From positions 1 through 4,410 of the IMG/VR virus record IMGVR_UViG_2724679236_000009: DNA of 4,410 bases. One strand, written 5' to 3'. Under the pieces are notes generated by a model. It was given only the letters and a program-made list of their open reading frames with translations. It did no database searches and was not told the origin of the DNA. The position numbers and the translations under genes are program-made. This DNA comes from a virus. Lineage: Duplodnaviria; Heunggongvirae; Uroviricota; Caudoviricetes. Of this stretch, positions 1 through 4,410 are shown one piece after another; the stretch's first letter is position 1; each line of letters opens with the position of its first letter.

Positions 1-423
1 ACTGGCTACCTGCATGAGGCTATTTTTTGTTTCGTCCGCTTCCCGGATCCGAAACAGTTTTTCTGCTTCTGCATCTTTCACCCAGGCTGTGCCGTTCCAC
101 TTCTGATATTCCCCTTCCGGGGATAACCAGGTGACATTTTCCGGTAACGGACCAAGTTCAGAAATAAATAACGCGCTCCCTGATTCCACGTTATAAACCG
201 TTTTACCCCGATGATCTTCAACGAGATGCCATGACTCCTCTTCACTGTTGAAAACAGCCACGAAACCAGCCGGAGTATCCGGTGGAGCAATATCCGTAGA
301 ATTAGCTGGCAGACCTGTATGCGGTGGAATATATGCATCACCTTCACCAATAAATTCATTAGTTCCGGCCAGCAGGTTATAGATTTTTATAGTCCGTGAT
401 TGTTCACTCATTCTGAATGCCAT
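1..423 (-). CDS. tfa: Tail fibre assembly protein Tfa (chaperone for side tail fibre), truncated by the window edge: 141 N-terminal codons present, remainder lies beyond position 1
   Basis: Minus-strand ATG at 423..421 opens a frame that runs without stop to position 1. My own translation begins [141 protein letters not shown], which is near-identical over its length to phage lambda Tfa as I recall it. The supplied ORF track misses this gene because it has no stop in the window. SD-like GTGAGG (complement of 432..437) sits 8 nt upstream of the ATG. Position immediately downstream of stf matches lambda gene order. Confidence 0.9.
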
Positions 424-3400
424 TATGCAAGCCTCACAATATAGTTAAATGCGATGTTTTTGACGGTGTTTTCCGCGTTACCCGCAGCGTTAACGGTGAT
501 GGTATGTCCATGCGCACCCAATGCCACTGTGTGTGCATGGGCACCAATGCCTACGGTATGGTTATGCTGACCAATATTGACGGTATGAGCGTGAGCCCCG
601 GCAGAGCTTGACACCTGGTTGGTTCCTGATACCTGTACGCGTTGTTTACCACCAACAGAGTCACCACCATAGCGCCCACCGACAGTGTGTGTATGCGCTC
701 CCGTATTGTTTGTCGTTTTTGTGCCGTGGTTAAACGTGCTGACCGTTTTTGTCCCGTAATCAAACGAACTGGTTGTTTTCGTCCCCAAATCCGTACTGGA
801 TGCACTGGCACTGTGGGTGTGAGATTTAATGCCGTCCTGTTCCTGTGACAGAATTTCACGACCACTGACGGGCTTGCCCTTAATCATCCAGCCACGCATA
901 TCAGGGATCACGCCTGACGGATAAGCGACTGCAAGTTTCGGGTATGCAGATTTGTCAAAAGTCTGCCCCTGCATCAGGGCATAACCAGACGGAACGGTAT
1001 CTGATGGCCACGGGATTGGTGCGCCGACTGGGTAGCTTTCTGGTGGAAGATTTTTCGAGGTATAAACTTCTGCCCAGCCTTCCTCAAAACCATAACCGTC
1101 TCTTGAAGAACGGTAGAACAGACCACCATTTCTGTAATGCGCCTTCATCTGCAAGGTCCGGCAACTTCCGACTCCGGTATAGAAGTTAACCAGAATATAG
1201 CTGTCGCCAGAGCGGGTGACATTGTAAGCGCCTGATTCGGCATTCCAGGGAACGCCACCATCCGCATCGGCATATGTATCCGTTGCCCTTCTGGCAAAAG
1301 CAGCCACATGCGCGGCGGTTAAAGTAATATCTTTTGAACCATCAAACTCAACCCCAGAAACCAGTCTTGGCGTTTGCAGCTTTGTTGCTGTCAATGCGTT
1401 ACCGTTCAGACTTGCGGACAGTTTGGTTCCAATAACCAGTTCGCCGGTTGCGTTATCAATAGCAAACGGTCTTAATGCATTCCAGCCACCATAAACATCA
1501 CCTTGATTGGTAAGCAGCAGATAAGTTTTAGCGCCGTCATTTCTCCATAATGCACCATATTCCCCACCTATCATTCGAATCTGATTACCACCACGCGCTA
1601 CAATTTCGTCTGTTGCGAAAAGTTTTTTGCACGACAAGTTATCGTTAACAATTAACGAATGAGATTCGTAAAAACCGCGCCCACTTTTAAAATCAAGGAT
1701 AACGTCAGCTGCGACACATTCTGTCGCCGGATTTATTGCCCCAAACTTATAGGTCGTATCATTAACAACGAGATCAGCACCCGGTGTGGATATTGACAGG
1801 CCATCTTCGATAAACGCAAAAACAGGGAAAGCAGCACCATCAACATAGAACACAGAGCGCAAATCATCGCCCTTATTACTCATCATTATTGAGTGAATGG
1901 CTCGTTCATTGTTTTGATATTGCCAGAACATTCCATAGGCATAACGCCCCCTGTCAGTCCAGCCGCCAGGCATAACGAATCCATTAAACTCACAGTTATT
2001 TAGTGGATCGTTCGCAGTTCGTGTTGCGGTAGTAATAATTACTCTTGATGCCAGCTCGCTTACTGAGCCAGCAGAGCGCATAACAACAACAGGGTAATAT
2101 TTCCCCGGTGTTGCACCTGCCGGAGCATTAACGCGCACATAACGCATACCATGCTTAGCAGCAAAGTCGGTTTTGCTGACCGCATTAATGTTGTTCAGGA
2201 AAGCGCCCTTATCTGGAATATCTTTACCGTTCTGATCTTTCTGCAGACGTTTCTCAGCATTGTCATTGGCTGCTTTTACTGCCTTTGGCGTTGCCGCCAG
2301 TGACTCGGAAGTGCTGTTGGTCGCGTTACTAAGTTTCACAACACCTTTAGTTGTAAGACTTGCGTCTTCCATCGCAACCGCGCCAGCAATCTCTTCAGCA
2401 CGATCAGCGGCAGCTTCTGCACGAGTCGCAGCGGATTCAGCGGCAGTTTTGCTCTGAGATGCAGCCGTCGCACTGCCTGCTGCTTCTGTTGCCTTCGTGG
2501 ATGCCGTTGTGGCGCTGCCCTTTGCTGCTGACGCTTGTCTGGTCGCCTCATCTTTTGAAGCAGACGCCGATGATGCCGATGACGCCGCCGAACTGGCGGA
2601 CGATGCGGCTGCCGCCTTAGAGGAAGCAGCATTGTCTTCTGAAGTCTTTGCATTTGTTTCAGAGGTTTTTGCTGCCGATGCTGAATTTTTAGCAGCTGTA
2701 GCCTGACTCGTCGCCTCAGTCGCTTTTGCGGTAGCTGTTGTCGCTGATGACAATGCGTTTTCCGCAGATTTTCCAGCGGCGGTGGCACTGGCTGAGGCCT
2801 GCCCGGCACTTGTTGACGCGGCACTGGCTGACGACGCAGCCGCTGTTTTTGAGCCTGCCGCAGCTGAGGCACTCTGTTCCGCTGCCGTTTCAGAGGACTT
2901 AGCGTTTGTCTCAGACGTCTTTGCCGCCTTCGCAGAATTTCCTGCTGCCGTTGCCGAAGAAGCTGCACTACTGGCGCTCGAGGCTGCGTTCGTTTCTGAT
3001 GATTTTGCCGCCTCTTTTGAAGCCGCTGCATCCCTGGCTGACGTGGCAGCTTCTGACGCCTTCGTGGTTGCAGTAGATGCAGAAGTGGCCGCAGATTTTT
3101 GTGACGCTACAGCATTCGTTTCTGACGTTTTCGCATTCGTCTCAGACGCCTTTGCCGCCTTCGCAGAATTTCCTGCCGCCGTTGCCGAAGAAGCGGCACT
3201 ACTGGCGCTCAAGGCTGCGTTCGTTTCTGATGATTTTGCCGCCTCTTTTGAGGCTGCGGCATCCCTGGCTGACGTGCTGGCGGCACGTGCTGAATTTCCC
3301 GCATCAGCGGCATGACTCGCCGCCTGATTGGCTGATGCACTGGCATCGCTGGCTGATTTCTTCGCGGCTGCCGTATTCTGTGCAACCGCGGAGGCGTTAC

Positions 3401-3743
3401 GTGACACCTCTTCCACCATCTGCTCAAAGCGACGCAGTGCCTCCGGCCGGACATCATCCTCCGTCATTGCACCGAGGAAATCATTCAGTGTGCCCGGCTT
3501 TGAGTCCTCATACACGGTGATAATCCCGGCATGTGACGGTGGAAATCCCTCCACCAACAGAATGACGCTGTACTGGCCGAACTCAACGTCCATTGTGTAA
3601 CGCCCGGCTTCATCCGGGTTTTCTGAAGCCACCGTGTTCACCACCACCGTGGTGCTGTTACGTCTGGCTTTCAGCTGGATTGTGCAGTTCTGTACCGGTT
3701 TTCCTGTACCGTCTTTCAGTACACCTGAAATCTTTACTGCCAT
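423..3743 (-). CDS. stf: Side tail fibre protein Stf, lambdoid type, intact full-length (~1106 aa from ATG at 3743; the ORF track starts at an in-frame GTG at 3749, two codons upstream)
   Basis: Single 3.3-kb minus-strand ORF with stop TAA at 425..423. N-terminus (M)[35 protein letters not shown]...[33 protein letters not shown] matches the lambda Stf (orf-401) N-terminal domain as recalled. Contains the conserved fibre motif [33 protein letters not shown] (about 2282..2350), a long Ala/Ser/Thr-rich repetitive shaft, and a C-terminal HxH-rich tip ending ...[31 protein letters not shown] at 3743 is preferred over GTG at 3749 because GGGG (complement of 3749..3752) is 5 nt upstream of the ATG and the GTG lies inside that SD-like element. 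Confidence 0.92.
432..437 (-). promoter_or_regulatory. Shine-Dalgarno-like element for tfa, embedded in the last codons of stf
   Basis: Minus-strand sequence ...AUUGUGAGGCUUGCAUAAUG: GUGAGG is 8 nt upstream of the tfa ATG, and the stf stop overlaps the tfa start (TAATG). Confidence 0.5.
2902..3045. repeat. Copy A of an in-frame ~144-bp direct repeat inside the stf shaft-coding region
   Basis: 2902..3045 and 3133..3276 align without gaps at about 94% identity (roughly 9 substitutions), offset 231 bp = 77 codons. They encode the duplicated peptide [19 protein letters not shown](A/L)[21 protein letters not shown](A/T)SETNAK. Confidence 0.85.
3133..3276. repeat. Copy B of the in-frame ~144-bp direct repeat inside the stf shaft-coding region
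   Basis: See copy A. Shorter degenerate units encoding K(T/S)SETNA recur around 2620..2700 and 3105..3150. Confidence 0.85.
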
Positions 3744-3746
3744 ACT

Positions 3747-3752
3747 CACCCC
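3747..3752 (-). promoter_or_regulatory. Shine-Dalgarno-like element for stf
   Basis: Minus-strand sequence UUUUUUGUGGGGUGAGUAUG: the GGGGUG run is 3-5 nt upstream of ATG 3743..3741. Confidence 0.45.
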
Positions 3753-3754
3753 AC

Positions 3755-3781
3755 AAAAAAGCCCGCCTGAACCGGCGGGCT
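3755..3781 (-). terminator. Putative Rho-independent terminator downstream of lom, directly abutting the stf ribosome-binding site
   Basis: On the minus strand the RNA would read AGCCCGCC-GGUUCA-GGCGGGCU (8-bp GC-rich stem, 3760..3767 pairing with 3774..3781, 6-nt loop) followed at once by UUUUUU (complement of 3755..3760). On the plus strand the A-run precedes the hairpin, so this is a terminator for minus-strand transcription only. Confidence 0.6.
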
Positions 3782-3807
3782 GTCATAACACTGTGTTACC
3801 TGGCTAA

Positions 3808-4407
3808 TCAGAATTTATAACCGACACCCACGATGAAACCATCAGTGCGCCAGTCACCACTGCCGGAGCCTTCATAAGCAATATCAATGGCCACGGATTC
3901 GGTCGGGTTAAACTGCACGCCAGCCCCCCACGCCAGAGACGTGTTACTGTGGCGACCGTCATCACTTCCGGTCAGCACATCGTGCGTTTTCCCCTTGTTG
4001 TCAGTTACGCGGAGATAATCCCCGGAGAAAGTCGACACACGGCTGTAAGCCACACCCGCCATCGCATACGTGCTGAACCATTCATTCACGCGCACAGATG
4101 GCCCCGCCATCACGCTGAACCAGCGGTTACGCACAGAATCTTCATGCCAGCGGGTATCGCTGTAACGGGTAAGCTGGCGATTCCTGTCTCCTGCATAGCT
4201 GAATGACGTCACCATTCCCAGCGTGTCCGTAAACTCATAACGGTATTTCACGTTAATCCCGTTAAGCTCATCGCTGCCGGAAACGTTCGTCGGGGCATGA
4301 AGATAGCCCGCGCTCAGCGTGGACTGATGTTCAGACGCCCATGCAGGCGCACCGGATACGGCCAGACAGATGGCTGCGGACAAAATGGCTGCACAAACTT
4401 TACGCAT
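3808..4407 (-). CDS. lom: Lom outer membrane protein (Ail/Lom/OmpX-family 8-stranded beta-barrel; lysogenic-conversion type gene), 199 aa, intact
   Basis: ORF with ATG at 4407..4405 and stop TGA at 3810..3808. N-terminal signal peptide [25 protein letters not shown]-terminus ...[24 protein letters not shown] matches the lambda Lom C-terminus as recalled and ends in the terminal Phe typical of outer-membrane beta-barrels. Alternating aromatic/hydrophobic stretches ([31 protein letters not shown]) fit beta-strands. Sits immediately upstream of stf as in lambda (J-lom-stf-tfa). Confidence 0.9.
4336..4407 (-). other. Predicted Sec signal peptide of Lom (24 aa, predicted cleavage after AWA)
   Basis: N-terminal MRK (positive n-region), hydrophobic core [16 protein letters not shown], then A-x-A motif (AWA) before SEHQ. 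Called by eye only. Confidence 0.6.
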
Positions 4408-4410
4408 AAT

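Follow-up and report, generated by a model that had tools for sequence, protein, structure and literature searches.

An intact StfR-class side tail fibre gene, probably from an Escherichia albertii prophage, is long only by comparison with lambda

Locus and gene identity

We analysed a 4,410-nucleotide stretch of a tailed-phage record (IMG/VR virus record IMGVR_UViG_2724679236_000009, positions 1 to 4,410), hereafter the window. Its principal gene is stf, which encodes a side tail fibre protein of 1106 amino acids (aa) and runs without interruption on the minus strand between a complete lom and a partial tfa. The gene is very probably the stf of a lambda-like Escherichia albertii prophage, and belongs to a common architectural class, represented by StfR of the Rac prophage, that occurs in lambda-like prophages of E. 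coli and E. albertii. As judged from sequence comparison, the protein is long only relative to lambda Stf and is ordinary for the StfR class. The features of the window are collected in Table 1.

Table 1. Features of the window, with nucleotide positions in the window and residue positions in Stf.
Feature	Window position	Strand	Stf residues (aa)	Description
lom	3808..4407	-		199 aa; Ail/Lom outer-membrane beta-barrel; Pfam PF06316 (Ail_Lom), E 4e-119; directly 5' of stf
Terminator-like GC hairpin and T-run	3754..3781	-		Lies between lom and stf; ends ~10 nt 5' of the stf ATG; found by sequence scan
stf	423..3743	-	1-1106	ATG start, 1106 codons, no interruption; side tail fibre gene, StfR (Rac) class
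Stf N-terminal tail-attachment (collar) domain	3462..3743	-	1-94	PF08400, E 1e-71; full Pfam model, reaching aa 134 (aa 1-134)
Proximal shaft	2373..3440	-	102-457	51 uninterrupted Ala/Ser heptads
Internal repeat copy A	3117..3276	-	~157-209	E. albertii-specific replacement of the K-12 StfR/lambda segment
Internal repeat copy B	2886..3045	-	~234-286	Likely donor of the in-register conversion
Segment of 105 aa (15 heptads) without lambda Stf counterpart	2520..2834	-	304-408	From MAFFT and landmark distances; exact placement ambiguous (repetitive sequence)
Post-coil neck/hinge	2178..2384	-	454-522	Like phage Mu tail fibre protein S (PDB 5YVQ/8JU3)
Middle segment	1629..2177	-	523-705	C-terminal part overlaps the Gp34_trimer match (aa 664-762)
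T4 gp34-like trimerisation module	1413..1754	-	664-777	PF21446, E 7e-27 (aa 664-762); PDB 4UXE/5NXF/9X3R (aa 706-777)
Second Mu gpS-like module	1023..1307	-	813-907	PDB 8JU3 residues 322-415
Collar and T4 gp37-like receptor-binding needle/tip	426..1040	-	902-1106	PDB 2XGF, E 9e-77; PF07484 (aa 907-954)
tfa (partial)	1..423	-		First 141 codons; tail fibre assembly chaperone; gene continues beyond the window

The identification of stf is considered correct because the protein starts with the same residues as lambda Stf and carries Pfam matches to PF08400, PF21446 (Gp34_trimer) and PF07484 (Collar). PHROG tail fibre families are also matched, and NCBIfam returned no family for Stf or Tfa. A preliminary description of the window, made from the sequence alone, had recognised an intact stf of about 1106 uninterrupted codons at 423-3743, and the minus-strand reading frame bears this out. 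A GTG at 3749, two codons 5' of the ATG, is the mechanical start of the open reading frame (ORF). On the minus strand the gene order is lom-stf-tfa, which is the lambdoid order J-lom-stf-tfa with gpJ lying upstream in the E. albertii loci described below. Gene integrity and synteny are thereby established.

Stf length among homologues

The preliminary description regarded the fibre as unusually long, taking lambda as the reference. Laboratory lambda PaPa carries a frameshifted stf, split into orf-401 and orf-314, and a 1-nt insertion restores a Stf of 774 aa, in agreement with the figure of about 770 aa given there. The window Stf is indeed longer than this, but so are the other members of its class: StfR of the K-12 Rac prophage (b1372, NP_415890.2) has 1120 aa, a bovine E. 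coli StfR has 1132 aa, and the fibre of phage Chlobot (XNS39588.1) has 1107 aa. Among the best 120 database homologues, lengths range from 1093 to 1328 aa with a median of 1160 aa, and only 7 are 1106 aa or shorter. The window Stf therefore lies at the short end of the StfR class. Matches in the phage records 2H10, Kati, mEp332, PhiR34_1 and ev099 span 3.35-3.40 kb, and the lambda span of 2.3 kb is the shortest among the full-range matches listed (query 1-1106). Chlobot, 2H10, mEp332 and ev099 are among the isolated phages whose fibre matches the window Stf in size.

We measured the lengths of the separate parts as distances between the conserved landmarks MTEDD, AATPKAV and GAPIPWP, since a length survey of 50%-identity representatives was blurred by many truncated metagenomic fragments. 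By this measure the shaft has 390 aa in the window and 285 aa in lambda (+105), the middle part 424 aa and 155 aa (+269), and the collar and tip 200 aa and 242 aa (-42), a net difference of +332 aa. The extra length had been thought to be concentrated in the shaft, but the shaft contributes only ~28% of the gross gain, and on these sequence comparisons most of the excess over lambda is a different, larger set of middle and distal modules. Landmark distances give a shaft of exactly 390 aa in 88 of 115 close homologues, and a MAFFT alignment places no gap in the shaft between the window and K-12 StfR, the bovine E. coli StfR or Chlobot.

An alignment with lambda and prophage Stf proteins had been proposed as the check on the claim of an expanded shaft, with typical length and an unexpanded shaft among the nearest homologues named as the result that would overturn it. 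That is the result we obtained, and the claim is not supported. The value of the comparison is one of calibration. Lambda Stf is a short member of the family, and therefore a comparison made with lambda only makes ordinary prophage fibres look expanded.

Relatives, occurrence and genomic context

K-12 StfR and the window Stf align collinearly over their full length with 88% identity over aligned positions. They share the lom-stf-tfa order, the order of domains, a shaft of 390 aa and a middle part of 424 aa that contains a Gp34_trimer module. They differ in a replaced segment of the shaft (aa 159-205 in the window, a copy of aa 236-282), in the tip, which is shorter in the window and has six rather than seven HxH motifs and other variable loops, and in setting, with an E. 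albertii host and NleG effector genes downstream where K-12 has pinR. The fibre of Chlobot, an isolated lambda-like phage, is also 88% identical and shares the lom-stf-tfa order, the architecture, the length and the 6-HxH layout of the tip, but lacks the E. albertii-specific shaft conversion and has other tip loop sequences. Lambda (Ur-lambda) Stf shares the near-identical N-terminal collar domain (aa 1-94), the Ala/Ser heptad coiled coil, the ATPKAVK neck motif, the distal collar, the gp37-like HxH tip, the downstream tfa and the upstream hairpin. It differs in a shaft that is 15 heptads shorter, in a middle part of unrelated sequence, and in a longer tip with eight HxH motifs.

The exact 1106-aa protein (P0001) is found on 11 contigs of E. 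albertii assemblies, where it is annotated as 'prophage tail fiber N-terminal domain-containing protein'; GCA_028622435.1 is one example of an E. albertii strain with this prophage. At the DNA level, at least 80% of the window is present at ~90% identity in 1216 of 5426 complete E. coli genomes, and a 90%-identity protein cluster (P0011) with 15,543 members has a representative that is 98.8% identical to K-12 StfR. The kind of gene is thus already known and very common, and its exact sequence is already deposited and annotated. As a discovery the gene carries little weight, since about one in five complete E. coli genomes carries the class and the coiled coil of the lambda shaft has already been described.

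Upstream of stf, the E. albertii loci carry an uninterrupted lambda-type tail module comprising the tape measure gene, M, L, K, I, J and lom. Downstream (loci L006-L011, for example L006:14057-20608) lie tfa, genes for two or three NleG type III effectors, and genes for an alpha/beta hydrolase and an omptin. Genes resembling uspF and ompN come next after omptin, which is the same neighbourhood as at the right end of Rac in K-12.

This setting bears on whether the gene is active. One rival view, which we hold to be the less probable, is that stf survives as a relic, intact but without function, in a defective prophage, like stfR in K-12 Rac, and would serve mainly as a reservoir of tail-fibre modules for incoming lambdoid phages through homologous recombination. 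K-12 Rac is cryptic and yet retains an intact 1120-aa stfR, lambda recombines with Rac across stf-tfa (PMC3945230), and the uspF/ompN-like neighbours place the E. albertii locus beside the same genes as the right end of Rac. However, the E. albertii loci retain the entire tail module without a break, lom is intact in the window whereas it is split by IS5 in K-12, and isolated phages carry the same class of fibre. A relic would in any case concern the activity of the gene rather than its identity, and is compatible with the assignment to a StfR-class stf of a lambda-like E. albertii prophage.

Two side observations arose from these surveys. Effector cargo, in the form of the NleG genes, sits at the end of the E. 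albertii prophage. In addition, StfR-type tail fibres are named 'short-chain fatty acid transporter' in many public records (P0016, P0018, P0021, P0025 and others), apparently an annotation error for this tail-fibre family that has been copied from record to record.

The shaft is a continuous heptad repeat

The composition of the shaft is 37% Ala, 22% Ser and 10% Thr. The strongest Fourier peak of its alanines falls at 3.50 residues exactly; the power there is 33.2, whereas 2000 shuffles averaged 1.0 and never exceeded 8.5. In the heptad frame, Ala occupies position a in 33 of 51 heptads and position d in 47 of 51, and Ser occupies position g in 38 of 51. The best register is constant from approximately aa 109 to 445, as it also is in K-12 StfR, and every one of the 12 strongest self-similarity lags is a multiple of 7. 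The heptad register is thus established, and the unbroken heptads with small residues at a and d are those expected of a coiled-coil sequence. The repeat is seen at the level of the protein and not as a DNA tandem array: Tandem Repeats Finder reported no more than four arrays, all short (period 9-21 nt, ~2-3 copies), and three of these lie in the shaft. The Ala/Ser/Thr-rich, heptad-like segment of the preliminary description (2430..3360) is therefore real and strictly heptad, lying inside the longer run in Table 1, but it is not expanded relative to the nearest homologues.

Structural evidence comes chiefly from lambda. Blocks within and flanking the shaft are near-identical to lambda Stf, whose domains have been delineated by cryo-electron microscopy and cryo-electron tomography combined with segment-wise AlphaFold3 prediction (Yu et al. 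2025, PMC12617516). Lambda gpStf comprises gpStfN (1-91), a linker (92-101), a proximal coiled coil (102-393), a hinge (394-422), a distal domain and then a gp37-like receptor-binding domain, and the proximal region appears in the imaging as a straight rod, for which the model is a trimeric coiled coil (PMC12617516). In an AlphaFold2 (AF2) monomer model of the window Stf, helices cover aa 100-246, 257-390 and 397-462, with a predicted local distance difference test score (pLDDT) of only 40-65 and the chain folded back on itself. We accept a fibrous coiled-coil shaft because of the homology to the lambda region, which is a stronger argument than the AF2 model. The trimeric, fibrous shaft proposed in the preliminary description is thus supported by register and homology as a shaft of heptad coiled-coil type, and by analogy with lambda it would be a parallel trimeric alpha-helical coiled coil.

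An alpha-helical coiled coil rises by 0.148 nm per residue. If the shaft is alpha-helical, the extra 105 aa relative to lambda, or 15 heptads, would add approximately 15.5 nm, and should extend the reach of the tip, as the preliminary description had suggested.

We also considered whether the Ala/Ser/Thr region is instead a flexible, disordered low-complexity linker. Such a reading could draw on the masking by BLAST of ~31% of the protein as low complexity, on the status of StfR as a known outlier for low-complexity regions (PMC12695832), and on the low AF2 confidence in this region. We consider it very improbable, because nothing would hold a disordered chain to one register, and here the 3.50-residue periodicity is exact and a single register persists over all 51 heptads with Ala in 47 of 51 at one core position. 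Many length differences across the family are also whole heptads, the homologous lambda region is a straight proximal rod modelled as a coiled coil, and AF2, for all its low confidence, gives helix throughout.

Two long ORFs in other frames overlie the shaft, one at 2782-3315 on the plus strand (177 aa) and one at 2336-3031 on the minus strand in another frame (231 aa). The lambda record annotates a comparable antisense 'orf206b' within stf. We rejected these ORFs as real genes and take them as by-products of the GC-rich low-complexity repeat.

Recombination and length classes in the shaft

Within the shaft, copies A and B form a direct repeat of 160 nt that is 91% identical and offset by 231 nt, corresponding to 77 aa or 11 heptads. 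In the protein, aa 159-205 is a near-copy of aa 236-282 and differs from every non-albertii homologue. Copies A and B share 51 of 56 aa in the window, against 27 of 56 at the paralogous positions in K-12 StfR and 26 of 56 in lambda. Within the set of 120 nearest homologues, the feature is confined to P0001-P0005, all of which are from E. albertii. Copy A looks like the product of a length-preserving, in-register intragenic gene conversion.

Across the family, landmark distances give shaft-length classes of 137, 166, 173, 182, 187, 278, 285, 329, 390 and 495 aa. Many of the differences between classes are multiples of 7, and the clearest series is 285 (lambda), 390 (StfR) and 495 (P0008), in steps of 105 aa or 15 heptads; a few close homologues deviate by -3 or -1 residues. 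A cruder, composition-based measure applied to 75 representatives with the N-terminal domain gave Ala/Ser/Thr shafts ranging from none detected or ~21 aa up to ~355 aa, with the StfR size class (~348-355 aa by composition, equivalent to 390 aa between landmarks) the longest among them. That last observation, together with the 105 aa gained over lambda, is what could be said for a genuine recent expansion specific to this gene and conferring unusual reach, an idea that is refuted by the homologue lengths and that we give next to no credence: K-12 StfR, Chlobot and most close homologues have the same shaft length, a longer class exists in P0008, and the protein as a whole is short for its class.

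The length classes and the E. albertii conversion are, as sequence patterns, consistent with evolution by in-register recombination. A broader proposal, which we advance only tentatively and regard as doubtful, is that the Ala/Ser coiled coil is a length-adjustable spacer that evolves by in-register recombination among its own heptad blocks. The classes suggest that whole-heptad insertions and deletions in the shaft are tolerated, and heptad-quantised classes together with conversion could interest those who engineer the host range of lambda-type fibres. Should the length classes prove adaptive, for instance by suiting the fibre to the thickness of O-antigen or capsule that its tip has to penetrate, host range would depend on shaft length as well as on the tip.

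N-terminal domain, middle part and tip

The N-terminal domain (aa 1-94) matches, over its whole length, the lambda chain named 'Tail fiber protein' in PDB 9E7M/9MGH (E 1.6e-50); that chain is identical to lambda Stf 1-94. Beyond the shaft, the preliminary description saw a large globular-looking domain rich in Gly, Tyr, Asn and Trp at 700..2280 (aa 489-1015). By sequence this region comprises several separate fibre modules, whose homologies are established, and its composition is 10% Gly, 10% Ala, 8% Thr and 8% Ser with no notable richness in Tyr or Trp.

The modules have relatives in two other phages. Phage Mu S (PDB 5YVQ, 8JU3) shares local modules with the window Stf at the neck, which is partly kept in lambda (ATPKAVK), and again at aa 813-907, and T4 gp34 (PDB 4UXE, 5NXF) shares one at aa 706-777. 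In both cases the likeness is restricted to segments, and the overall proteins, their N-termini and their tips are unlike the window Stf. Thousands of E. coli tail fibre proteins contain the segment between these modules (aa 523-705), and its lack of a solved relative reflects incomplete structural coverage, not anything anomalous about the segment. The same middle module occurs in 'tail fiber proteins' of 660-720 aa that lack PF08400 among their listed domains. Tail fibre genes are mosaic (PMC3945230), and as far as domain listings go these proteins illustrate that mosaicism.

The T4 gp37 tip (PDB 2XGF) matches the window Stf over the collar, needle and head, with HxH motifs and an identical C-terminal end. 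T4 gp37 differs in having seven HxH motifs and other loop inserts, and sits on a four-protein myovirus long tail fibre, not on a single-chain side fibre. Six HxH motifs lie at aa 975-1080 of the window Stf (window 504-821), compared with seven in K-12 StfR and eight in lambda, and with fewer motifs the needle is probably shorter than in either. Bartual et al. 2010 (cited in PMC7291167) are reported to have found that the HxH motifs of T4 gp37 coordinate iron in the needle. In the window Stf, one metagenomic protein (P0006) has the same loop sequence between the motifs (aa ~997-1050), and Chlobot has the same layout.

Proposed mechanism

Homology with Ur-lambda suggests how the fibre might work; the trimer state, dimensions, metal binding, receptor and prophage activity in this model are what we infer. 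Three Stf chains would assemble into one fibre, and their N-terminal domains of ~94 aa would dock at the junction of the tail tube and tip, where docking of the trimer is known for Ur-lambda (PMC12617516). After a short linker, the 51 heptads would form a parallel trimeric coiled coil of 'alanine-zipper' type, approximately 53 nm long, acting as a stiff spacer that keeps the distal rod away from the tail. The neck or hinge would let the distal part swing. The distal rod would be built of modules common to Mu gpS and T4 gp34, and at the far end of the fibre would sit the collar and the T4 gp37-like needle, which carries six HxH motifs. Reversible binding of an outer-membrane receptor by variable loops on this needle may speed adsorption before J meets its own receptor. 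Tfa, encoded downstream, would serve as a folding chaperone that assists folding of the tip. In lambda, Stf binds OmpC and has a gp37-like tip, and Tfa assists assembly of the Stf trimer (review, PMC7291167).

Several observations weigh against parts of this picture. Both AF2 monomer models are of low confidence (mean pLDDT 34.4 for the whole protein and 34.7 for the middle part, where the model is unusable), so that the helix call is weak when taken alone. A trimeric coiled coil does not usually have Ala at both core positions; the arrangement recalls 'alanine-zipper' trimers such as Braun's lipoprotein. For aa 523-705, neither a single-sequence search nor a profile search with the middle-part alignment found a PDB relative. 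K-12 StfR, lambda and T4 have other sequences in place of the variable tip loops (aa ~997-1050), and for this reason no receptor can be assigned here from the sequence. Finally, the tail module is the only part of the prophage inspected in the E. albertii loci, which bears on virion production.

Flanking genes and the lom-stf hairpin

The ATG of tfa overlaps the stop codon of stf (TAATG). The product of the partial gene matches PHROG 105 'tail fiber assembly' (E 8e-70), and in E. albertii loci L006-L011 the tfa position is occupied by a PF02413 (Caudo_TAP) gene of 193 aa.

The hairpin between lom and stf has an 8-bp stem with 7 GC pairs followed by TTTTTT, and is kept in lambda, K-12 Rac and phage Chlobot. 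It might stop lom transcription in lysogens, with Q-antiterminated late transcripts reading through.

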